Assembly (NCBI GenBank): GCA_965224085.1
Contig: CBDCYI010000011.1
Span: forward strand, 1,440,001-1,504,000
DNA length: 64,000 nucleotides
Direction: 5' to 3'
Source: Candidatus Marinacidobacterales bacterium
Lineage (GTDB): Bacteria > Acidobacteriota > Vicinamibacteria > Marinacidobacterales > SMYC01
Below, in pieces: positions 22,738-34,781 of the stretch. Under the pieces are notes generated by a model. That model saw only the letters and a list, made by a program, of their open reading frames with translations. It had not been told where the DNA came from and did not search any database. Made by a program: the position numbers and the translations under genes. Numbering within the stretch: the stretch's first letter is position 1; each line of letters starts with the position of its first letter.

Positions 22738-24537
22738 TTGAGTAAGGTCGTCGGAATCGATCTCGGAACCACGAACTCCTGTATCGTAGTGATGGAAGGT
22801 GGCACGCCGCAGGTCATCCCAAACCAGGAAGGGGCGCGCACGACCCCATCCATCGTCGCTTTCACGAGCAAGGGTGAGAGGCTCGTCGGCCAGATCGCAA
22901 AGCGGCAAGCATTGACCAATCCGCAGAACACCGTCTACGGCGTGAAGCGTTTGATCGGGCGCCGTTTCAATTCGCCGGAAGTGCGAAACGCGCAAAAGGT
23001 TCTCCCCTATCAGATCATCGAAGCGACGAACGGCGATGCTCATCTGCAGATCGAGGACAAGGTCTATAGCCCGCCCGAACTCGCCGCGATCGTTTTGCAG
23101 AAGCTGAAGGCCGCGGCGGAGGATTACCTCGGAGAGCCGGTCGAAGAAGCCATCATCACGGTGCCGGCCTATTTCAACGACTCGCAGCGGCAAGCGACCA
23201 AGGACGCGGGCACGATTGCCGGCTTGAACGTACAACGCATTCTCAACGAGCCGACAGCGGCTTCGCTCGCGTATGGCATGACCGAGGGCGCGTCGGGAAA
23301 GGTCGTCGTCTACGACCTCGGCGGCGGCACGTTCGACATCTCGATCCTAGAGCTCAATGATGGAATCTATCAGGTGCTCGCCACGGGCGGCGACACTTAT
23401 CTCGGTGGCGAAGATTTCGACCAGCTCATCATCAATTGGCTGGTGGAGGAGTTCCAAAAGGAGAACGAGATCGATCTCACCGGTGACAGTATGGCGCTCC
23501 AACGGCTCAAAGAAGCGGCAGAGAAGGCCAAATGTGAGCTCTCGACGCAAGCCCAAGCCGAAATTGTCCTTCCCTTCATCTCGGCAAATCAGAGCGGCCC
23601 CAAACATCTGAACACGGTCCTCACCAAGACGAAGTTCGAGCAGATGATCGAGCCTCTTCTCGAAAGAACGCGCAAACCTTGCGAAGACGCGCTCAAGGAT
23701 GCGGGGCTGTCCGCTGCGGATTTAGACGACGTCATCCCAGTGGGTGGCCAGACGCGGACACCGAAGGTTCTCGAGACGATCCAGAAAATATTCCTAAAAG
23801 AGCCGAACCGGAGCGTCAATCCGGACGAAGTCGTCTCCATCGGCGCCGCGATCCAGACGGGCATCATGCAGGGCGAGGGAACCGACCTCGTGCTACTCGA
23901 TGTCACGCCTCACACGCTCGGTATCGAGACCAAGGACGGCACCTTCACGTCGCTCATCGATCGCAACGCCAACATCCCGACAAAGAAGGGCCGGATCTTC
24001 ACGACGGTCACCGACAACCAGAACAAAGTCGAGGTGCACGTACTTCAGGGCGAAGGCACGATGGCGCACGAGAACACGTCGCTCGGCCGCTTCATGCTGT
24101 CGGATGTCTCGCCTGCCCCGAAAGGTGTACCGCAGATCGAAGTTATTTTCGAGATCGACGTGAACGGCATCGTGCAAGTGACCGCGCTCGATCAGGCAAC
24201 GGGTCGCCAGCAGAACATCACGGTGCGCGCGGCGAGCGGTCTAACGCAATCCGAGGTCGCCAAAGCGCGAACCGAGAACGATCAACAAGTGCAGTTGGAG
24301 GAAGGGTTCAAAGAGCGTGACCGCATTGTCGGCCAGCTCCAGGGTCTCACGCAGAGCACACGGAAGACATTCGAGCTTCTCTCCGCAAAGCTGACCGACG
24401 AGGAGCGGAGCTCTGCGACTCAGGCGCTCACCAAGGCGGAGCAAGCAAAGGAAGGCTCGCTCGACGAGCTTCAAGCAGCCCTCTCGATTCTAGAGACCAC
24501 TGCCGAAGCTCTTGGGCAGGCCATGCTGCGCGGCTAA
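22738..24537 (+). CDS. dnaK: Molecular chaperone DnaK (short C-terminus)
   Basis: [44 protein letters not shown]. Confidence 0.96.
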
Positions 24538-24629
24538 AGGCCCGGAGCCGGAAAACGTCCTATCAGCCGACCTTCGTTCCGACCGGAAAAGACACTCTAT
24601 AATGGGTCCAATCGGTCGGGAGATTCATT

Positions 24630-25766
24630 TTGAGTAGCACGACGAAACGCGATTTTTACGAAGTGCTCGGTGTCGATCGGCAGGCGAGCCAGCAGGACAT
24701 CAAGAAGGCCTATCGCCGGCGCGCAGTCGAATTCCACCCGGACAAGAACCCCGACAACCCCGAGGCGGAAGACTCCTTTAAAGAGGCAGCCGAAGCCTAT
24801 AGCATCCTCGGAGACCAGCAGAAGCGCGCTGTCTACGATCGATACGGGCACGAGGGGCTCCGCGGCGGACCTCAAGTCAACACGGACATCTTCCGGGAGT
24901 TCACCGACATCTTCGGCGGCGGCGGCAGCATCTTCGAAGAGCTGTTCGGCGACTTCTTCGGCGGTGTGGGCCGAAGACGCCGCGACGTTCGCGGCGCCGA
25001 TCTTCGCTACGATCTCGAGATTACCTTCGAAGAGGCTGTCAAAGGCGCCGAGACGCGGATTCTCGTCCCGCGTAACGAGCTCTGCGAAAAGTGCGACGGT
25101 TCGGGAGCGACTCCCGGCACCCAGACCCAAGCCTGCCCCACCTGCGGCGGTCATGGGCAAGTGCGCTACCAGCAGGGGTTTCTCGTCGTCGCGCGCCCGT
25201 GCGCTCAGTGTCAGGGGACGGGACGCTTCACACCGAACCCGTGCGCGCGATGCGCGGGCACCGGCCATGTCGCGCGGGAGCGTGAGCTTACCCTCAGGAT
25301 CCCGGCCGGTGTCGATACGGGCTCACGCCTGCGGCGCACAGGCGAAGGTGAAGCAGGCGTCCAAGGCGGGCCTCCCGGAGACCTCTATGTTGTTCTGAGC
25401 GTGGCACCCCACAGCCTGTATCGTCGGGACGGCGACGAAATTCTCATCGAGCTTCCCATTACGTTCGCCCAGGCCGCGCTGGGCGCCGATGTGGCCGTCC
25501 CCACCATCCACGGAACCCAGCGCATCAGCATCCCTGAGAGCACCCAAACGGGCACTATCATCAAGATTCGCAACAAAGGTGTCCCCCGGCTCAGCGGCTC
25601 AGGAAACGGCGATCAGATCGTCGTCGTGAACGTCATCACGCCATCCAAGCTCACGAAAGAGCAGCGCTCGCTTCTGGTAGCGCTCGGCGAGCTTACACCA
25701 CCGCCCAAAATGGGTGAACGAGCTCCGGGAGCCGAGAAGAGCTTCTTCGAAAAACTCTTTGGATAG
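24630..25766 (+). CDS. dnaJ: Molecular chaperone DnaJ
   Basis: HPD J-domain, G/F region, four CxxCxGxG repeats. Confidence 0.97.
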
Positions 25767-26577
25767 TTATCCGATACTGGAGCTCTCGGGCTCGGCGGAG
25801 GAGCTCGAGATAGCGGTGGCGCTCCTCAGCGAGCACGGCCTTTTAGGAACGATCGAATCCGAGACGAGCGACGGTCTCTGCGCTTACTTCGCGAAATCGA
25901 CCGCTTTGGCGCACGTCGTCGACGAGCTGATGCAGCGCTTCGACTCTGTCCTTTGCCACATCGCCGAGCCTCTCGAAGCGCGTGACTGGCAAGAGGAGTG
26001 GAAGGCGGGCCTCGACGGTTTTCACCTCGGCCGTGGCTTTTTCGTTCTCCCGACATGGAAGAGTCCCGTCGCGACAGACCGAACGCTACTGCGTCTCGAC
26101 CCCGAGCAGGCCTTCGGGACGGGCGCCCACGAGACGACACGGCTAGCGGTCGCGCTCCTCGAAGAGCACGTCGCCCCCGGAGCAGACGTTATCGACGTGG
26201 GTACGGGCACGGGCATCCTCGCCATGGTGGCGGTCCACCAAGGCGCACGCGCCGTGCTCGCCGTGGAGCCTGATGAAGCGGCGGCCGCCTGTGCCCGCGC
26301 GAACATCGAGCGCAACGAGCCCTCGGAGCGCATTCGCATCGAGTCCTGCGGCTGGGAGGCCATGGGAGCCATCGAGGCGGACGTCGTGGTCGCAAACATC
26401 ATCTCCGCCGTGCTCGAGAAAGCGGTGCCTCACATGCGGGGGACGATCCTGTTGTCGGGCCTACTCGTCGAGGAGCTCGACGCATTCGTCGCCGCCCTTC
26501 CAGATGACTGCGTCGTAAGAAAGCGACGCCAAGAGGGCGAATGGGCAGCACTCGCGCTCGAACGGCCTTTGAGTTGA
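25759..26577 (+). CDS. prmA: Ribosomal protein L11 methyltransferase
   Basis: [32 protein letters not shown]; follows dnaJ. Confidence 0.9.
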
Positions 26578-27287
26578 GTCGAGAGCGGCGTTTTTTTGTG
26601 GACGATCTGAACACGCCGTTCATAGAGCTGACCGGCGACCAAGCCCACCACCTCATCCATGTGCTTCGGCTGAGCACCGGCGACACGGTAGCCCTTTTTG
26701 ACGGTCGCGACACAGCAACGTCCGCGCGCGTGGCCAGCATCCACAAGGACACCGTCCAGCTCGAGCTCGGCGACCCCATCCCCGCCCACGAGTCCCCCCT
26801 CGCGCTCACCCTCGCCGTCGCCGTGCCAAAAGGCGAGAAGATGTCGCTCATCGTCCAGAAGCTCACCGAGCTCGGCGTGACAGCCGTACAGCCACTCATC
26901 ACCGACCATGGCGAAGTACATGAAGAGTGGATCCAAAAACGCCTGAAACGCTGGCGCCACATCGCATTAGAAGCCGCAAAACAAAGCGCCCGCAGCCGTC
27001 TCCCCCGCATCGAACCACCGAAACCGTTCGACGACGTCGACGTCATCCAGCGCAACACGTTGCTCCTAAGACCCGGCGCTCCCCCGCTACGAGAAAAACC
27101 GTCGATAAAGCAACCCATTATCGCAGTAGGCCCCGAAGGAGGCTGGTCGAACCGCGAGCTCGCGCTGGCCCACGAACGCTCCGTACTGGAGCTAAGCCTA
27201 GGCCCAAGAACGCTCCGCACCGAAACCGCCGCCATCACCGCCACCGCCGTCATTCAATGGCTAGCCGGCGACCTCGCCGAAACGTAG
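26574..27287 (+). CDS. rsmE: 16S rRNA m3U1498 methyltransferase
   Basis: HLIHVLR, QKLTELG, EAAKQS, VGPEGG, LGPRTLRTETA. Confidence 0.94.
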   Translation: MSRERRFFVDDLNTPFIELTGDQAHHLIHVLRLSTGDTVALFDGRDTATSARVASIHKDTVQLELGDPIPAHESPLALTLAVAVPKGEKMSLIVQKLTELGVTAVQPLITDHGEVHEEWIQKRLKRWRHIALEAAKQSARSRLPRIEPPKPFDDVDVIQRNTLLLRPGAPPLREKPSIKQPIIAVGPEGGWSNRELALAHERSVLELSLGPRTLRTETAAITATAVIQWLAGDLAET

Positions 27288-27454
27288 CTCTGTAGATCGC
27301 TATTTGGGAGGCGCAGCGCTATGCCGGGCTTTCGGCGCTGCCGCTCGCCATGGCCGGGTGCGACCTGTCTACGCAGGTCTATCCGGTTCTCAGGGCTGCG
27401 AAGTCGTAGGCCAAGATTGTGTGCGTACGGCGCGCGCCGTTGGTGCTGGCTGTG

Positions 27455-29464
27455 CTAGCCCATGTTTACCCTTTATGGGCACCCTAACGCTCGTAAGTGA
27501 CTGAATTCAAAGGAACGGGGGTTGAATTTGCCCAAAACGTAGAGACAGATATTGTGCTTTGAGCGCCATTAATACGTTGTAATCGTGGACAATGATATGT
27601 AGTATGCGTGAGGACAGGTTATGTTCTTCCGCATCGTTCGGGCCGCAGGCGGCAAAGGGGTTCAACATGAGTATGTCCGCCTGGTCGAGTCGTATCGGGA
27701 GCACGGCAAGCCGAAGCAACGCGTAGTGTGCAACTTGGGGCGCAAGGATCTCCTAGTTGCCAATCTCGACTCCCTCAATCGGTTGCTTGGGGCCGGTGAA
27801 CCGGCCGACACCGAGCGAGCAGCCGAGCAGATCGCGGGGGCAGACGCGTGGGATTGGGGTCCGATGGTGGTGACGGCGACGCTGTGGCGCGAGCTCGGAC
27901 TGGAGCAGATTCTCGACCGGCTCGGAGGCCGCGGCAAGCGCGACGGAGTGGCGCTAAGCGAGCGAGCTTTGGTGCTGGTCGCCAACCGGCTATGTGCTCC
28001 GTCAAGCGAGCACGGTCTGGCGCGCTGGCTCGAGACCGACTTCGTCTGCGACCGGCAGGGGCGGCGGTGGGTGCCGCAGTGGCGCGATGATGGGGAGCGG
28101 CGAGCGAGTCGCTCCCCGCGGGTTCGCGTGGAGTTTTGCCAACTCAAGCAATGGTACCGAACGCTCGACCAGCTGCATGCCCGCAAAGAACAGATCGAGA
28201 AAGAGCTGTTTTTGCGCTTGCGGGATCTGTTTTCGCTTGAGGTTGACATGGTGTTTTACGACCTGACGTCGACGTACTTCGAAGGTCAAGGCCCTCCGGG
28301 GCTCGGCGCCCACGGCTACAGTCGCGACCGCAGACCGCGTAACCGGCAAGTGCTTGTCGGTCTGGTGATGGTGGACGGTTGGCCGATCGCCCACCATGTT
28401 TTCGCCGGCAACTGGCGTGACGCGAAAACGGTGCCGCAGGTGCTCAACGATCTCAACGAACGATTCGGTTTGCACCGCGTGGTTTTTGTCGGCGACCGAG
28501 GGATGGTAACGAGCGACAGCCTGGCGGTGGTGCGCTCGCGCAAGCAGGGCTATCTCGTCGGGCTGCAAAGACGACGGCGCGAGGAGGTCTATCGTTACAT
28601 CGAGCGCGCCAGCGGAGAGTGGATCGACTGCCCTGGTGGCATCACGGTGAGCGAAAAAGCCGAGCCACCTAAGACTCGTGTGCAAGAAGTCCGCTCCGAG
28701 CAGTCTGGCGTGCGCATCTTCGTCGTTCACAGCGACGAAAGGCTCGCCTACGAGCGCGGGCAGAGGCTGCGGGCCATGGGACGTGCCCGTGCGGCATTCG
28801 AGGCCCTTGAGCGCCGCGTGCGCGAGGGACGATTGAAAGCCCCCGAGAAAATCGGTGCCGCCGCCGCGCGCATACAGGCACGCCACCACGGTCACCGTTA
28901 CTACGACTGGGAGTACAAAAACGCTCGCTTCCGCTTCTTCGAGCACCCGGTCAACCTCAAGCGCGAGCAAGCCTACGAGGGTAAGTACGTTATTCAAACC
29001 GAGGAGCAAAACCTCTCTCCGGTCGACGCCGTGCGCCTTTACAAGGACCTAAACGAGGTCGAGCGAGCCTTCTCATGCCTTAAGGATGTCATTGAGATGC
29101 GTCCCGTTTACCACCAGACCGATGAGCGTGTGGAGGCACATCTTTTCGTAGCTACGCTGGCCTTCCTTGTGCATCGGGCTCTTGAGAAAAAGCTCAAGGT
29201 CGCCGAACTCGACCTGTCCGCAACCGAGGCACTACAAGCGCTACGCTCGGTCCGGCTCGTCGACTTACAGCTGGGTTCTGGGCGGACCAAGCGCGTCGTC
29301 ACGCGCGGCACCGCTCGCGCCAACTCGATCCTGACTGCACTCGGAATCGTTGAACGCGACCCGCCAGCCTTCTCCGAGGAGGTGCTGTCAGCGTAGAGAC
29401 AAACCGCGGATCTCAGTCCTTTGTTTATGATGACTTAGAGACCTAAAAGGGAAACATGGGCTAG
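27455..29464 (+). mobile_element. IS1634-family insertion sequence, 2010 bp
   Basis: TIRs CTAGCCCATGTTT / AAACATGGGCTAG; 5-bp TSD CTGTG at 27450-27454 and 29465-29469; subterminal CGTAGAGACA repeated near both ends. Confidence 0.9.
27621..29396 (+). CDS. IS1634-family DDE transposase
   Basis: YVRLVESYREHGKPKQR N-terminus, FYDLTSTYFEG, GYSRD, VGDRGM, Y..L.EVERAF..LK, RPVYH. Confidence 0.92.
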   Translation: MFFRIVRAAGGKGVQHEYVRLVESYREHGKPKQRVVCNLGRKDLLVANLDSLNRLLGAGEPADTERAAEQIAGADAWDWGPMVVTATLWRELGLEQILDRLGGRGKRDGVALSERALVLVANRLCAPSSEHGLARWLETDFVCDRQGRRWVPQWRDDGERRASRSPRVRVEFCQLKQWYRTLDQLHARKEQIEKELFLRLRDLFSLEVDMVFYDLTSTYFEGQGPPGLGAHGYSRDRRPRNRQVLVGLVMVDGWPIAHHVFAGNWRDAKTVPQVLNDLNERFGLHRVVFVGDRGMVTSDSLAVVRSRKQGYLVGLQRRRREEVYRYIERASGEWIDCPGGITVSEKAEPPKTRVQEVRSEQSGVRIFVVHSDERLAYERGQRLRAMGRARAAFEALERRVREGRLKAPEKIGAAAARIQARHHGHRYYDWEYKNARFRFFEHPVNLKREQAYEGKYVIQTEEQNLSPVDAVRLYKDLNEVERAFSCLKDVIEMRPVYHQTDERVEAHLFVATLAFLVHRALEKKLKVAELDLSATEALQALRSVRLVDLQLGSGRTKRVVTRGTARANSILTALGIVERDPPAFSEEVLSA

Positions 29465-29510
29465 CTGTGTTATACGGAATGCTCGAACGCTACCGAAGAG
29501 GTATCCAGCT

Positions 29511-30842
29511 ATGAACGAGCAGCGCCGAGCCGGACGTGGATTCCGCTCGTGGCCATGCGCCATGACCATCGTTTTGTTTGTCGCGGCGGCTTCCGCGAAC
29601 GATGGCAGGGATGAGTCTAAAGAAAAGAGTGTAGTGGCACAGGTGCCGTCACCGCCGGAGCAGCAAGAAGAAGGCGACCAGGCGAGCGGAGCGAGCTCTC
29701 GCGGAGAGCTTCTTCGCCAGCTGCGCGCCGAGAAGTCCCAAAAGCTGAGGCCGTACAAAGTTTCGAACACGGAGACGAGGACACGCCGATGGGAGAAGGC
29801 GAAGTTTCCGACGAACTGGCTGGTCAAGGGCTGGCGCGGGATCCGGCCAGTGATCGGCGGCATGCCCTCTGGATCAGGAGCCGTATTCGGTGGAGGCTAT
29901 ATCCACGGGCTAGACGCCCAGTACGTTCAATTCCAAATCAACGGTCGGTACTCCACGCGAGGCTACACGATGTTCGACGGGCAACTCGTCTTTCCGCCTC
30001 CTCAGGTCGGCAGAAGGATCGAGTTCAAGTTGGACGGAGCTTATCGCGACCTGACGTCGCTCCGCTTCTACGGCCTGGGAAACGACTCGGCCGTCGACGA
30101 TCGGAGCACCTATCTCCTGAGGGACAAGACGTTCATGGGGTCCGCATGGCTCAACCCGCGCGGGCTTCTTTCTTTTGGGGCCCAAGGGGGCATCATCAGG
30201 GCACGCACCGACTCGGGTGATGCTGGAACCTCGCTGGAAGAGAACTTTGTCCCTGAGGACGTGCCCGGCTTCGGGCTAGAGGAGACCAATTTTGGGGTAT
30301 TCGGCGGATGGGCAGAGTTCGATCTTCGTAGCAAGTGGGAGCAACCAAACGTAGGCATCGTGTTCCGGCTCACCGCCCTCCGATACGAGGATTCGGAACT
30401 GAACCGTTTCGATTTCACTCGCGCGATCGGCGACGTGAAGGCCTATATCCCGCTTGGCCCGAAGAGCCGCATTCTAGCGCTCCGCGTCCGAGCCCAGCAC
30501 TCCAATCCCGATGAGGGGCACGAGGTCCCGTTCTATTTGATGGAGACCATCGGCGGGGCGAACACGATTCGCGGTTTCCGTGAATGGCGGTTTCGCGATC
30601 GGGGGAATCTTCTCATGAGCGCTGAATACCGATGGGAAATTTGGACCCATATCGATTTGAGCTTCTTCGTGGACGCGGGCAAGGTCTTCTTCGACACGGA
30701 CGAGCTGGACTTCGACGGCCTCAAGACAGGCTACGGCTTCGGCCTCCGGGCGCATGCCCCAGGAGGCTTTACCCTTCGCATGGACATCGCCAATAGCTTC
30801 GAGGGCTTCAAATTCCACATCGGCGGCGGTCCGAGCTTCTGA
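29511..30842 (+). CDS. Omp85/BamA-TamA family beta-barrel without recognisable POTRA domains
   Basis: Signal peptide, amphipathic beta strands, PFY..IGG..TIRGF loop-6 motif, AEYRW, FVDAGKVF, C-terminal Phe. Confidence 0.85.
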   Translation: MNEQRRAGRGFRSWPCAMTIVLFVAAASANDGRDESKEKSVVAQVPSPPEQQEEGDQASGASSRGELLRQLRAEKSQKLRPYKVSNTETRTRRWEKAKFPTNWLVKGWRGIRPVIGGMPSGSGAVFGGGYIHGLDAQYVQFQINGRYSTRGYTMFDGQLVFPPPQVGRRIEFKLDGAYRDLTSLRFYGLGNDSAVDDRSTYLLRDKTFMGSAWLNPRGLLSFGAQGGIIRARTDSGDAGTSLEENFVPEDVPGFGLEETNFGVFGGWAEFDLRSKWEQPNVGIVFRLTALRYEDSELNRFDFTRAIGDVKAYIPLGPKSRILALRVRAQHSNPDEGHEVPFYLMETIGGANTIRGFREWRFRDRGNLLMSAEYRWEIWTHIDLSFFVDAGKVFFDTDELDFDGLKTGYGFGLRAHAPGGFTLRMDIANSFEGFKFHIGGGPSF

Positions 30843-30855
30843 ACAGGAGGAGACG

Positions 30856-32522
30856 ATGAGACTCGCGCCGAGACTGTTCGTGGCCGGTTTGCTCGTGAGT
30901 CATCCGAGCGCACAAGCTCAGAGATTCTATCCTGACGATCCAATCCAGCGCGACGACGACAGCCTTGACACTCCCGAGAAGCCAGCTGGAATCGAGCTCG
31001 GCGACTTGTACGATCGTTTTTCGCACATTACCAACGATTTTGGCTCCTCCGAAATCGGGAGCGAAGCGCGAAACGTCAACACTTTGGACGAGGTGCCCGA
31101 CAGCAACTGGTTTACCAATCGGCACGGGTGAATCGCATGAGTCTGGAAGAGCTCGTGCGCGGCTCCAATGTCAGTGGAGCGCCAAACCCCGACGAAACGT
31201 GGACCGTCTTCAAAGGCAAGAGCCAGGGTCTCACACCGGGGTTCGAAATCCTCGATAGCAAGGGAGACCGCTACGTCATCAAGCTGGATCCCGTGGGCGT
31301 TCCCGAACTCAGCACCGGCGCGGAAGCGATTGCCACGAAGATCTTCTACGCGATCGGCTACAACACCCCGGAGAACTATATCGTTCGTTTCGACCCCGAC
31401 AACTTCGCGATCCGGGAGGGGACACAGGTCGAAGACACCTTCGGGGACGAACAGGCTCTGACCGAATGGCGGCTGAGGCGGATGATCCGTCGGGTACCGA
31501 GGGCAGAGGACGGGACGATCCGGGTGACGGCAAGCAAGTACATTCGAGGAACACCGATAGGCCCATTTCGCTACTACGAGACCCGGAGCGACGACCCCAA
31601 CGACATCATCTCGCACGAAGACCGCCGGGAGCTGCGCGGCCTCAGGCTCTTCGCCGCGTGGACCAATCACGACGACACACGAGCTCAGAATACCCAGTCC
31701 ACTTGGATCGAAGAGGACGGCAGGCACTTCGTGCGGCACTACTTGCTCGACTTTGGATCTACTTTCGGAAGCGGTTCCGTCGACATGCAGTTTCCGAACC
31801 TGAGCTTCACCTACTGGCTGGACTTCGGCGAGGTGAAGAGGAACACATTCGGCTTTGGATTTCGTGTTCCGAAGTACCGCCACGTCAAATGGCCGTCCTA
31901 TCCGGAATATCAGGCGGTAGGGCGGTGGGAGGGAGAAGCCTTCGATTGCCTCGGTTGGCGCAACGATTATCCCAACCCGGCCTTCGTTCGTATGATGCCG
32001 CGAGACGCCTTTTGGGCAGCAAAGATCATCATGCGCTTCACCAGGGAAGAACTCAGTGCGATCGTGAACACAGGCGAGTATGGCAACCCTGACGTTGCTC
32101 GCTATTTTCTGGACGTACTCGTACAGCGCCAAACCAAGTGCGGAGAGGCCGGCATCAATCGGACCAACCCTCTGGACGATTTCCGCCTCACGGGACGCTA
32201 TATGGAGTTCACGAACGTTTCACAAGCCCATGGCTTCGTCGATTCCGAGACAGAATACTCGTTAAGCTGGTCGCTATTCGACAATCGAACCGGCGCGCGG
32301 GAAGCTCTACGCTCTGCCGTCACGCAGTCACAGACGAGAAGCGAGCTTCCCGAGCGACCTCGCAAGGGCCCCGACGATTTTCTCCTGGCTGAGCTCCGCT
32401 CCATCAACACGGATTTTCCTCATTGGGACGCACCGATCACCGTCTACCTTCGACCCGTCGGCGGCGGCTATCGCATTGTCGGGGTCGATCGAGCGCAGCG
32501 GGCACAAGAAGAAGATCCGTAG
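30856..32522 (+). CDS. Exported atypical kinase-fold protein (1-nt frameshift at 31126-31128)
   Basis: AGGAGG RBS, signal peptide ending AQA; KGKSQGLTPGF, YVIK, NHDDTRAQN and LLDFGS motifs; the two ORFs join if GGG is GGGG. Confidence 0.7.
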
Positions 32523-32723
32523 ATATGGAGCGCGCTCGCATTCCGCTTCACCGCTCTGCGATGTCATCGAAAAGATACCCTTGAATTTCGGTTCAAGACT
32601 GAGGTCCTAGGCCTAGGATTCGCAGGGCATTTCGACTTCGTCGCCACGCGGGACACCCCGAGCCAGACCCGGAAATTTATGTCTTGGTTGGCCCGCCCCC
32701 TGTGTTTGTAGTTGTCTTAGATT

Positions 32724-33725
32724 CTATGGTTGCGGCGCGCGTGACAAGAGTCTTTCTTTTAGTGCTTGACACACAACCACGGAAGTCAGGGCAGTAATGG
32801 GGTTGGTTTCAACTGGCTGTTCTGAATAATCATTCGCGCGGAGATGAATTTGATTTTCACCGTAAGCACCGATCTGTTCGGGGTCGGTCGGACCATACAG
32901 CGTTAGTGCAGGAACATTTAATGCGCCGCATAAATGTCCTAGGCCCGTGTCGACAGCCACCACTGCGCTGGCCTGAGCCAGCACACAAGCAACACCATGT
33001 AAATTCAAGCGAGGCAAAACTTCGACCCCCGCTATGTCGTTTGCAATACGAACGGCGCGGTCCCGCTCATGCGCCTCACCCCAGGGCAATCGAATGCGAT
33101 AGCCCTCAGCTGTGAGCCGCCGCGCCAAGTCTCGCCAATAGTCTTCCGGGTAAAGTTTGCATTCTCGCGCTGTTGCATGCAAGAACACAATGTTCGCAGA
33201 CTCAGCCGATGAGCCTGTGAAGCGGTGTCGACTAATACCATAGTCGCCTCGCCCCTGTGGCAGGGTATATCCCAAGGCCTGCGAAAATAGCTGACGAATT
33301 CTTTCCACTGCATGCTGTTGCTTGGAGACGGAATACTTTGCATGATAGGCCCAAGAGGCAAGGGGTTCGCGAATGGATTCTTTGTCGAATCCCGCGTTCG
33401 GTGCTTTCACAAGCTTTGATAGCCATGCACTTTTGAACAAACCCTGGCAGTCGATGACTAAATCATAGTGGTGACGGCGCAATTGCGTTTTGAATTGCCG
33501 CCACTCCGCGGAAACCCAGTGCTTAAGAAAATTTTTCCGCCAGCGCCGAATAGCCACAGGGATAACCTGATCAATCGCTGGGTGCCAACTGGGAATTTCC
33601 TGAAAGCCTTCCTCCACCACCCAATCAAAAATATACGAGGGGTAGGCTGCTTTGGCATCGGTGAGTGCCGGCAAGGCGTGAATAACATCGCCCATCGATG
33701 AGGTTTTTACGACCAAAACTCGCAT
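32724..33725 (-). CDS. waaC: Lipopolysaccharide heptosyltransferase I
   Basis: VKTSSMGDVIH.LPALTD, DWVVEE, D.QGL.KSA, HAVER.RQLF, VDTGLGHL; visibly AT-richer codons. Confidence 0.93.
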   Translation of the reverse strand: MRVLVVKTSSMGDVIHALPALTDAKAAYPSYIFDWVVEEGFQEIPSWHPAIDQVIPVAIRRWRKNFLKHWVSAEWRQFKTQLRRHHYDLVIDCQGLFKSAWLSKLVKAPNAGFDKESIREPLASWAYHAKYSVSKQQHAVERIRQLFSQALGYTLPQGRGDYGISRHRFTGSSAESANIVFLHATARECKLYPEDYWRDLARRLTAEGYRIRLPWGEAHERDRAVRIANDIAGVEVLPRLNLHGVACVLAQASAVVAVDTGLGHLCGALNVPALTLYGPTDPEQIGAYGENQIHLRANDYSEQPVETNPITALTSVVVCQALKERLLSRAPQP

Positions 33726-33745
33726 ATCCAAAAAGCTAATTAACG

Positions 33746-34684
33746 CTACTGCGACTCCCCGCAGAACGGACAGCTCGTGCTTCGCGCATGGAGGGGTTTG
33801 CGGCAGTTCCAGCAGAAGCCTGCGGAGGTTTTCTCTCTTGCTCTCAGTCTCGAGCGGATGTCTTCGAGGCGCGAGGCGCGGTGATCGATCTCGCTCGCGG
33901 TGCCGAGATCGTCTAGGAGCTCTCGCGTGCGCTGGTAGCGGTCGGAGATATCGGGGGCTAGCGCGCGCATGATGATCTCCTCCATCTCTACCGGGATCGT
34001 TTTGTTGCGCTCGCGGGGGCGCACGGCGCGGCCAGAGAGCGCCATCTTCTCCAGCTGTCTCGGATTGGCACTGAAGTAAGGGAGGACGCCGGTCATCATC
34101 TCGTACATGATGACGCCGAGCGAGTAGACGTCGGAGGAGAACATGGCGCGTCCCTGGAACTGCTCGGGCGCCATGTAGGGCGGGCTCCCGATGATCGTCG
34201 ACGCGTGCTCCGCGACTTCGAGGAAGCGGGACGTGCCGAAATCCGTAATCTTGATCTGGCCCTCAGGTGTCACCAAAACGTTCCCTGGCCGCAAATCGCG
34301 ATGGAGAACACCCTGAGCGTGAGCATATTCGACACCCGTGGCAAGTTGGCGCGCGAAATCGGTTGCTTGCTCGATACCGAGACCGTTCTCGCGCTCGAGC
34401 ATGGCTTCGAGGCTCTCACCTTCGACGAATTCCATGACGATGAAGAAGTAGTCTTCAGCTTTCTCAGCGGTGACGATGCTGACGATGTTTGCATGGTCTA
34501 GCGCCGCAAGTAGCCTCGGCTCTCGGAGCAACTCGTCGAACTCACCATTTTGTTTGTGCGGCACCTTGATCGCGACTTTCTTGTCGATCCACGTGTCGCG
34601 AACGAGATAGACCGTTCCGAATCCCCCGCTCCCTAGCGTCTTGAGGACCTCGTACTTGCCGAGTTGGTTTCCGAGGAAAAACAT
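33746..34684 (-). CDS. Hanks-type Ser/Thr protein kinase with C-terminal zinc ribbon
   Basis: GSGGFG, VAIK, HRDLRPGN, DFG, YMAPE, DVYSLG; CWNC...CPFC tail. Confidence 0.93.
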   Translation of the reverse strand: MFFLGNQLGKYEVLKTLGSGGFGTVYLVRDTWIDKKVAIKVPHKQNGEFDELLREPRLLAALDHANIVSIVTAEKAEDYFFIVMEFVEGESLEAMLERENGLGIEQATDFARQLATGVEYAHAQGVLHRDLRPGNVLVTPEGQIKITDFGTSRFLEVAEHASTIIGSPPYMAPEQFQGRAMFSSDVYSLGVIMYEMMTGVLPYFSANPRQLEKMALSGRAVRPRERNKTIPVEMEEIIMRALAPDISDRYQRTRELLDDLGTASEIDHRASRLEDIRSRLRAREKTSAGFCWNCRKPLHARSTSCPFCGESQ

Positions 34685-34752
34685 CTGAGCGGCGCGCAGT
34701 ATAACATCCGCTTCGTCTCGGCTCGGCCACCAGCAATCGATCGCTCGATGTG

Positions 34753-34781
34753 TTGACAACACAAGGGTTTTTACCTAGCAT
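34753..34781 (+). promoter_or_regulatory. Putative sigma70 promoter of pilT
   Basis: TTGACA-17 bp-TAGCAT. Confidence 0.55.

Follow-up and report, generated by a model that had tools for sequence, protein, structure and literature searches.

The locus described here raises the question of what an exported protein with the features of a kinase could do beside an outer-membrane barrel, in a compartment not expected to supply it with adenosine triphosphate (ATP). It occupies positions 29,511 to 32,522 of a 64,000-nucleotide stretch of contig CBDCYI010000011.1 (assembly GCA_965224085.1, Candidatus Marinacidobacterales bacterium), which we refer to as the window, and consists of two forward-strand genes, the first encoding an Omp85 barrel without POTRA domains and the second a kinase-like protein interrupted by a frameshift. 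The periplasm is generally held to be free of ATP, and we know of no outer-membrane-tethered periplasmic kinase that has been characterised. Our preferred answer, to which we give a probability of about one half, is an outer-membrane-tethered periplasmic kinase that in many lineages would receive ATP from an exporting NTT carrier and be opposed by exported phosphatases. Computed support for this answer comes from protein folds, motif conservation, export signals, gene adjacency and predicted docking.

The pair had been noted in an original prediction made from the sequence alone, which read two genes 13 bp apart with an AGGAGG before the second, an Omp85 barrel with an IRGF motif and a terminal phenylalanine, a short N-terminus in place of POTRA domains, and a gene of ~555 residues with one nucleotide lost from a G run, a Sec signal peptide and kinase-like motifs in order. 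Each of these readings was borne out at the coordinates given. The features of the pair are as follows.

29511-30842, + strand: gene 1, Omp85 barrel without POTRA domains (noNterm type), 443 residues, C-terminus ...GGGPSF
29700-29828, + strand: N-terminal periplasmic helices of gene 1 (residues 64-106), predicted kinase-docking arm
30570-30578, + strand: R-G-F of the loop-6 motif IRGF (residues 354-356)
30840-30842, + strand: stop codon of gene 1, read from the sequence
30845-30850, + strand: AGGAGG ribosome-binding site within the 13-nucleotide spacer between gene 1 and gene 2, read from the sequence
30856-31131, + strand: first piece of gene 2, 91 residues, with the signal peptide (30856-30918) and the N-terminal wrap segment
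31126-31131, + strand: frameshift site, a GGG run (31126-31128) followed by a premature TGA (31129-31131)
31128-32522, + strand: second piece of gene 2, 464 residues, with the kinase-like domain (~31152-32159) and a C-terminal FN3/Ig-like sandwich (~32160-32465)
31584-31604, + strand: R-S-D-D-P-N-D (R-x2-D-x2-D) with R244, D247 and D250, predicted contact to the Omp85 arm
31665-31691, + strand: catalytic-loop-like N-H-D-D-T-R-A-Q-N (D274 codon 31674-31676, N279 codon 31689-31691)
31749-31757, + strand: DFG (D299 codon 31749-31751)

Gene 2 starts with the ATG at 30856, and its N-terminus is signal-peptide-like (MRLAPRLFVAGLLVSHPSAQA). One base is missing in or beside the GGG run at 31126-31128 relative to intact relatives. 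The first piece was 84% identical to residues 1-91 and the second 87% identical to residues 92-555 of P0002, an intact orthologue of 555 residues, and because both pieces match this single protein we treat gene 2 as one gene of ~555 residues carrying a one-nucleotide frameshift. Nearly all relatives of gene 2, among 120 listed, were 540-580 residues long.

The product of gene 1 matched the Pfam family Omp85 (PF01103; E 1e-14, 55.2 bits with a cut-off of 24) and scored 78.6 bits against the NCBIfam model Omp85_fam, under its cut-off of 200. From N- to C-terminus its AlphaFold model (pLDDT 84.8) consisted of a signal helix, a disordered stretch, three helices (residues 64-78, 86-96 and 98-106) and a barrel of 16 strands at residues 111-440, and the top Foldseek matches were TamA and BamA barrels (E 2.9e-13, TM 0.73 on the target). 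R354 of the loop-6 motif was invariant in 37 partner barrels, and the terminal residue of gene 1 was phenylalanine. Conservation extended to the helical arm and the residues just after it, with R72 found in 16 of 17 and K75 and L79 in all 17 of the closer barrels, and P81 in 36 of 37 barrels overall. No POTRA domain was found in the Pfam search or in the AlphaFold model, and there was no Pfam match at E<=0.1 to DUF5982, the motif covering the first two strands in the Leptospira group of noNterm barrels. A test of gene 1 as a two-partner secretion barrel was also negative, with no POTRA domain and a match to the ShlB model (E 0.079) below its cut-off. We place gene 1 in the Omp85 superfamily, among its noNterm members but outside the DUF5982 group.

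For gene 2 the structure modelled was that of the natural orthologue P0002, using an alignment (A1) of 81 relatives, and the window gene was left unrepaired; kinase residue numbers are those of P0002 and conservation counts refer to the 81 relatives in A1. The P0002 model was of high confidence (pLDDT 94.3, pTM 0.93). A VIA-align structural search of this model against 48,161 chains returned atypical kinases as all of its best 14 matches (Z 13.2-9.7, 216-257 residues aligned, model residues ~100-440), in agreement with the kinase fold expected from the motifs. These were led by CtkA (Z 13.2, 229 residues, root-mean-square deviation 4.0) and Fam20C/Fam20 (13.0-11.0), and included PI4KIIalpha (12.2), CotH (11.6), the bacterial serine/threonine kinase 7wcf (11.4), actin-fragmin kinase (11.4), HipT (10.7), MavQ (10.2) and HipA (10.0 and 9.7). 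From the fifteenth match on, the results were mostly FN3/Ig-like sandwiches (Z 7-8, residues 436-537). The same kinds of kinase led the Foldseek search of P0002, at E 2.9e-4 and above.

Sequence searches tied gene 2 only faintly to a known kinase family. Weak Pfam matches were observed to HipA_2 (PF20613) in 19 of the 81 relatives (best E 7.4e-5) and to HipA_C (PF07804) in 11 (best E 0.012), and no HipA-family Pfam match was found for the window pieces or for P0002 themselves. Fam20 (PF06702) was matched by none of the 81 relatives at E<=1 among the 25 families listed, the gene 2 pieces gave nothing above noise in Pfam and NCBIfam, and PDB sequence searches with P0002 and with its profile gave chance-level matches only (E >= 0.025, armadillo repeats). 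In the ESM Atlas the protein's own clusters were unnamed and the named neighbours were Fam20C (0.81), PI3_PI4_kinase (0.80) and HipA_2 (0.80), all below 0.9 and so leads only. The family itself is large, comprising 2705 cluster representatives at E<=1e-3.

The second reading frame of the window gene carries KGKSQGLTPGF, YVIK (Lys codon 31281-31283), TGAE, NHDDTRAQN and DFG, and the residues that these motifs would contribute to catalysis were conserved in nearly all relatives: K143 in 79 of 81, E/D157 in 77, D274 in 77, N279 in 80 and D299 in 79. Also conserved were K122 (75 of 81; in the first loop, with G125 and G129), H295 (78), F300 (73) and G301 (69), and R244, D247 and D250 were each present in all 81. 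K143 lies on strand 139-144 of the P0002 model and E/D157 on helix 152-167, with D274 in the loop after helix 263-270 and D299 in the loop after strand 290-297. This conservation is the pattern expected of an active phosphotransferase, short of proof. By modelled fold and by motifs the gene 2 enzyme is assigned to the kinase-like (PKL) superfamily, with no demonstrable membership, at the level of sequence, in the HipA, Fam20, CotH or PI3/4K Pfam families.

An N-terminal hydrophobic signal segment was observed in 80 of the 81 relatives, consistent with Sec export, and a lipobox-like cysteine in 29. In the window copy and closely related proteins the signal peptide is a plain one, with A-x-A at its end.

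The prediction of the complex used residues 30-443 of the window barrel (alignment A2) and residues 22-555 of P0002 (A1). The interface scored an ipSAE of 0.82, 0.82 and 0.81, compared with 0.00 for the best of three controls, and the runs shared at least 61% of their contacts with a partner pLDDT of at least 86. On the barrel side most of the interface was formed by helices 61-106, joined by residues 134-135, 317-320 and 375-383; the kinase contributed residues 25-56, 75, 194-197, 244-251 and 313-342. The lowest-error contacts linked barrel residues 72-82 to kinase residues 244-251, and the contact residues were the most conserved non-catalytic residues of both proteins. The three smaller barrel patches are the turns after strands 2, 10 and 12 (even-to-odd); given a periplasmic N-terminus, such turns face the periplasm, which places the kinase on the periplasmic face. 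This high-confidence prediction suggests that the kinase docks there through the N-terminal helices of the barrel and its own invariant R-x2-D-x2-D. The original prediction had left open whether the barrel exports, anchors or feeds the kinase, and anchoring alone is favoured by the modelled complex.

Adjacency of the two genes was surveyed in 49 loci, taking one genome per species. In 45 of the 49 the kinase gene was preceded by a same-strand Omp85 match, and the gap between the two matches was 3-384 nucleotides in 42 of these 45. Record titles placed the loci in at least five phyla (Acidobacteriota, Zixiibacteriota, Omnitrophota, Myxococcota and Bdellovibrionota). Of the four exceptions, two (L018 and L045) were cut by a contig end, one (L024) was a rearranged contig in which the barrel adjoins the kinase but is inverted, and one (L028) held only part of a kinase gene and had no barrel within 6 kb upstream. 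In L004 an opposite-strand open reading frame (ORF) intervenes between barrel and kinase, in a Polyangiaceae metagenome-assembled genome (L040, 2664-7362) two tandem kinase-like ORFs (606 and 538 residues) stand behind a single Omp85 gene, and L023 is what a deletion has left of a pair (see below). As the family holds 2705 cluster representatives and the pairing recurs in 45 of 49 external loci, the pairing is far beyond chance, and the conserved adjacency expected of a dedicated barrel is real across several phyla.

Three pairs were found within the window genome itself (6.87 Mb, 12 contigs): the window pair, an intact pair on contig C4 and a distant pair on contig C9. Identity to the window pair was 68% (Omp85) and 63% (kinase) for the C4 pair, and 33% and 37% for the C9 pair; barrel and kinase thus diverge in step, and the pairs were therefore duplicated as units. 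In a MAFFT alignment the C9 kinase (L056, 5518-8516) had K143 replaced by R, D274 by R and N279 by Y, and had lost the DFG region, and it retained R244, D247, D250, H254, R258 and R261. From its sequence this paralogue is likely to be a pseudokinase still bound to its barrel, and the loss of catalytic residues together with retention of the docking motif fits a docking role separate from catalysis.

Clustering of all ORFs in the loci revealed a third recurrent gene, encoding an NTT/TLC carrier of 775-1257 residues. All five carrier neighbours that were scanned matched PF03219 (41.7-74.6 bits, cut-off 21) together with HEAT_2, and two of the five, both from Vicinamibacterales (L001 and L010), also had cNMP_binding; scores against TIGR00769 were far under its cut-off. 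A match to the NTT transporter domain was present in 27 of the 49 loci, and three further loci matched in the HEAT/cNBD part only. Three gene orders were observed, with the carrier convergent and downstream in Vicinamibacterales, and co-directional and either upstream or downstream in Omnitrophota and others. In each of five genomes tested, every PF03219 match fell at the pair locus. Of 121 Acidobacteriota genomes drawn evenly, the window genome (G000) among them, 24 had the kinase and 54 an NTT-like gene, the latter present in 21 of the 24 kinase-positive genomes (20 of 23 without the unpublished G054) compared with 33 of the 97 kinase-negative ones. The carrier offers a possible answer to the original prediction's concern that the compartment normally lacks ATP. 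No NTT match was found in the window or in the C4 and C9 loci. The NTT-HEAT gene of this genome (955 residues) lies on contig C5, with distinct genes for a cNMP-binding and a Metallophos-TPR protein behind it (L063, 7842-13324), and C4 holds a more distant NTT-like gene (931417-933552). In the available text of Major, Embley and Williams (2017, PMC5381601), NTT-HEAT(-cNBD) fusions are described as monophyletic, widespread in free-living bacteria and uncharacterised, with their function left open and uptake discussed.

Several other neighbours had a phosphate-related theme, each confined to one lineage. A gene for a DSP/PTP-type phosphatase was observed in four loci, in all four with a signal-like N-terminus; it lies directly upstream of the barrel in L032, L038 and L043 and on the far side of the barrel in L024. 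A two-domain PPK2 gene was found in L001 (8556-10115, E 9.4e-133), and its BLAST cluster included full-length members in L004, L019 and L020 (519, 511 and 519 residues) and a shorter one in L009 (293 residues). This gene stands between the kinase and NTT-HEAT genes in Vicinamibacterales and upstream of the barrel in L009, which hints at nucleotide regeneration from polyphosphate. Other examples were PsiE (L026), PAP2 (L029 by scan, L045 by cluster), Exo_endo_phos (L041) and, adjoining the pair in L040, a gene for a purple-acid-type/Metallophos phosphatase. Six loci, mostly from Omnitrophota, encoded DUF5329 lipoproteins (L031 and L049 scanned with Pfam, the others assigned by cluster), all six with a lipobox, and BON-domain proteins were found in ten Vicinamibacterales loci.

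An ORF family without a Pfam match was also observed directly upstream of the barrel in the intact loci most closely related to the window pair, the C4 locus (L055, 7866-10016; 716 residues), L026 (3822-4298, 158 residues) and L027 (3932-4522, 196 residues). A clear signal-like N-terminus was present in the L027 member only. In L026 the PsiE (phosphate-starvation-inducible) gene lies between this ORF and the barrel.

The module we propose would work as follows. Gene 1 would form a 16-strand Omp85 barrel in which three short periplasmic helices replace the POTRA domains, and gene 2 would encode a Sec-exported, atypical kinase-like enzyme of the HipA/CtkA/Fam20/PI4KII type, probably a lipoprotein in about one third of relatives. 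The helices of the barrel would grip the R-x2-D-x2-D of the kinase, so that the enzyme hangs under the outer membrane at its periplasmic face, where it would most likely move phosphate from a nucleotide onto an envelope substrate (protein, lipid or glycan). An adjacent inner-membrane NTT/TLC carrier, in most cases with HEAT repeats and often also a cNMP-binding domain fused to it, may swap cytoplasmic ATP for periplasmic adenosine diphosphate (ADP), and in some loci exported dual-specificity phosphatases would reverse the mark. What we infer in this scheme is catalysis, the source of the phosphate, which way the carrier works, and the substrate. Extended to free-living diderms of several phyla, it would amount to periplasmic ATP-dependent phosphorylation served by NTT-HEAT(-cNBD) carriers that exchange ATP and ADP under cyclic-nucleotide control, with a docked kinase and erasing phosphatases, a generalisation that we hold tentatively and at rather below even odds.

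Several points weigh against this scheme. Kinase folds are also known to carry out AMPylation, glutamylation or scaffolding, and a shared fold is not a shared function; the Foldseek kinase matches of P0002 had low TM-scores (0.28-0.55). The docking mark, reached by 116 of 157 solved complexes and by 2 of 215 mismatched pairs, is only roughly calibrated here, as the predictor was run on alignments that we made ourselves. The link to the carrier was absent from 22 of the 49 loci and from all three loci of the window genome, and three kinase-positive genomes of 98-99% completeness (G034, G050 and G093) had no NTT-like match. Nor is the link exclusive, given the 33 of 97 kinase-negative genomes with an NTT-like gene, and the related genomes in these counts are not independent. 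All characterised NTTs import nucleotides, according to the available text of PMC5381601. The window copy is broken, by the frameshift in contigs of three studies and by a TG insertion in two runs of study P3 (see below), a point that concerns this copy only.

The same genes could instead form a two-partner-like secretion system, in which the barrel translocates the unfolded kinase over the outer membrane for surface display or release and the enzyme acts outside or in a target cell. Export of operon partners is known for Omp85/TpsB barrels, and passengers such as patatin can be fused to Omp85 barrels (PMC11358297 and PMC4104836); in Leptospira, noNterm Omp85 genes precede genes for lipoproteins thought to be surface-exposed (PMC11358297, available text). 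Here, however, the barrel has no substrate-receiving POTRA domain and its partner no TPS (two-partner secretion) domain by Pfam. The pair is found in the predatory Bdellovibrionota and Myxococcota and in Omnitrophota, and CtkA, the top structural match, is titled in the PDB as a Helicobacter proinflammatory kinase, both of which count in favour of secretion; adjoining NTT carriers, exported phosphatases and lipoproteins fit periplasmic chemistry. The predicted docked state could be a pre-export intermediate, but it shows a folded kinase held in the periplasm by a conserved arm, and the catalytically dead paralogue keeps the docking motif. We consider secretion unlikely.

We think it still less likely that the module serves scavenging, with the barrel admitting nucleotides or organophosphates, the kinase-fold protein binding or processing them and the NTT carrier importing them as in energy parasites. 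The restriction of characterised NTTs to import (PMC5381601, available text), the interpretation of Omnitrophota translocases as ATP scavengers (PMC10066038, in the part available) and the phosphate-themed neighbours (PsiE, PPK2, PAP2, the Metallophos/purple-acid-type phosphatase and Exo_endo_phos) would all be accommodated by it. Yet the catalytic Asp and both metal-binding residues were retained in 77-80 of 81 relatives and would be needless in a mere binder, Omp85 barrels are not known as solute channels, the organisms that possess the module are mostly free-living soil or sediment Acidobacteriota with large genomes, and each phosphate-related neighbour is restricted to one lineage. Least probable of the readings considered, and in our view improbable, is a different chemistry (AMPylation, glutamylation, or modification of small molecules, lipids or glycans, for example with polyphosphate as donor) or a non-catalytic regulator or plug of the barrel. 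The lipid kinases PI4KIIalpha and MavQ were among the top structural matches, PPK2 genes lie in Vicinamibacterales loci, and the C9 paralogue without K143, D274 and N279 keeps its docking motif, so that docking would be useful without catalysis; the full Lys/Glu/D-x4-N/DFG set in nearly all members nevertheless suggests an active phosphotransferase.

A docked periplasmic kinase would have a close functional likeness in Fam20C, the Golgi casein kinase, which like gene 2 combines an atypical kinase fold outside the cytosol with a signal peptide. Fam20C chains matched P0002 with Z 13.0-11.0, and in one of the alignments the match extends over model residues 31-432 and so takes in the N-terminal wrap. 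Eukaryotic secretory-pathway kinases are served by lumenal ATP/ADP exchange, and both systems would need a nucleotide carrier that brings ATP into the compartment. The differences are that gene 2 would act in a bacterial periplasm rather than the Golgi, would be tethered to an Omp85 barrel and has no Pfam Fam20C match, and that the carrier would be of the NTT/TLC family, another family than that of the eukaryotic exchanger. HipA/HipT and Helicobacter pylori CtkA share the D-x4-N catalytic loop without HRD, and CtkA was the top structural match; unlike them, the gene 2 protein is exported, paired with a barrel and without an antitoxin partner, and has an N-terminal wrap of ~100 residues and a C-terminal FN3-like domain.

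On the side of the barrel, the noNterm Omp85 proteins (Heinz and Lithgow 2014, PMC4104836; Leptospira, PMC11358297) share with gene 1 the 16-strand barrel, the loop-6 RGF and the absence of POTRA domains, and in both cases a gene for an exported protein or lipoprotein comes next. Gene 1 differs from those of Leptospira in lacking DUF5982 and in having a conserved three-helix arm and a kinase-fold partner, and the word "kinase" does not occur in the available Leptospira text (PMC11358297). TamA-TamB and TpsB-TpsA likewise consist of an Omp85 barrel and a partner encoded side by side, with the partner engaging the periplasmic side, and TamA barrels were the best Foldseek match of gene 1. In contrast to TamA (three POTRA domains) and TpsB (two), the gene 1 barrel has none, and its partner is neither an AsmA-like lipid bridge like TamB nor a TPS-domain exoprotein like TpsA. 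The module resembles the Fam20C arrangement in logic and TamA-TamB in architecture, and falls under neither definition. The carriers of the relatives have the architecture of the NTT-HEAT and NTT-HEAT-cNBD proteins (PF03219 and HEAT_2, with or without cNMP_binding), and in the available text of PMC5381601 we found no link of these to an exported kinase and an Omp85 barrel.

No description of the Omp85-kinase pair or of an NTT-HEAT function was found in open-access papers and bioRxiv. A large family with canonical catalytic residues, a dedicated barrel and carrier and phosphatase neighbours would add a further level to what is known of envelope regulation or biogenesis and, if the proposal is true, provide bacteria with an equivalent of the secretory-pathway kinase system of eukaryotes. 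Two groups of orphans, the noNterm Omp85 barrels and the NTT-HEAT carriers, would also gain a function that can be tested; the latter also occur in Chlamydia and oomycetes (PMC5381601, available text).

The state of the window copy itself was examined at the frameshift site. Runs X1, X3 and X5 stem from three studies, and their contigs, which cover 30600-31700, all had the letters of the window at this site; the assembly may itself derive from any of these, and rare variants are lost in contigs. A truncated ORF identical to that of the window (P0001) was found on three contigs. Contigs of X8 break off at 31128 and restart at 31140, which may reflect polymorphism at the frameshift site that is not readable from contigs. 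Contigs of X5 and X8, both from study P3, also carried a TG insertion (+2) after 30705 within the barrel gene; this would shift the last ~45 Omp85 codons, so that both genes of the pair look broken in that population. As the frameshift and stop are unchanged in contigs from three studies, window gene 2 is probably a real pseudogene, despite retaining all catalytic and docking residues, and the copy is probably a recently inactivated, redundant and decaying paralogue, itself probably inactive, rather than a sequencing error. A real stop at 31129-31131 was among the findings that the original prediction named as refuting it, and for the window copy the stop does largely appear to be real; the reading of the family is unaffected, since this genome has a second, intact pair of paralogues, which can carry the function. 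In practice, an intact paralogue or orthologue would be the better experimental object. Programmed frameshifting as a rescue of gene 2 was set aside, as nothing pointed to it and this locus has suffered a simple deletion in a related genome.

In that relative (L023, 5534-6916; ~80-84% nucleotide identity) the equivalent of window 30060-31712 is deleted from a homologous cassette, leaving Omp85 residues 1-183 fused to kinase residues ~252-555. Homology to the window spans 29483-32524 with unrelated flanks, and the limits of the cassette coincide with the two genes.

Upstream of the pair, an insertion sequence was observed in the promoter region.

27454-29465, + strand: insertion sequence with 22-nucleotide terminal inverted repeats (27454-27475 and 29444-29465, 91% complementary)
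27621-29396, + strand: DDE transposase ORF of the insertion sequence, 591 residues, Pfam DDE_Tnp_1 E 8.3e-8

Its end lies 45 bp upstream of the Omp85 start codon and, with the frameshift and the remnant in L023, speaks for decay of the window copy. The element looks complete and sits between a dnaK-dnaJ-prmA-rsmE block (22738-27287) and the gene pair. A promoter and terminator scan of 29300-32800 found sites no more numerous than in shuffles, and the base composition across 20-46 kb showed no break at the pair (GC 0.55-0.65).

Downstream of the pair, the minus strand encodes a Hanks-type serine/threonine kinase (338 residues, with a zinc-ribbon tail) and a family-9 heptosyltransferase at 32724-34762. 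The proximity of Hanks kinases could be chance in the kinase-rich Acidobacteriota. Others were observed near the module in L002 (3095-4708) and, judged from ORF clusters alone, in L024 and L029, and one (L063, 3748-4815) lies near the NTT-HEAT gene of the window genome.

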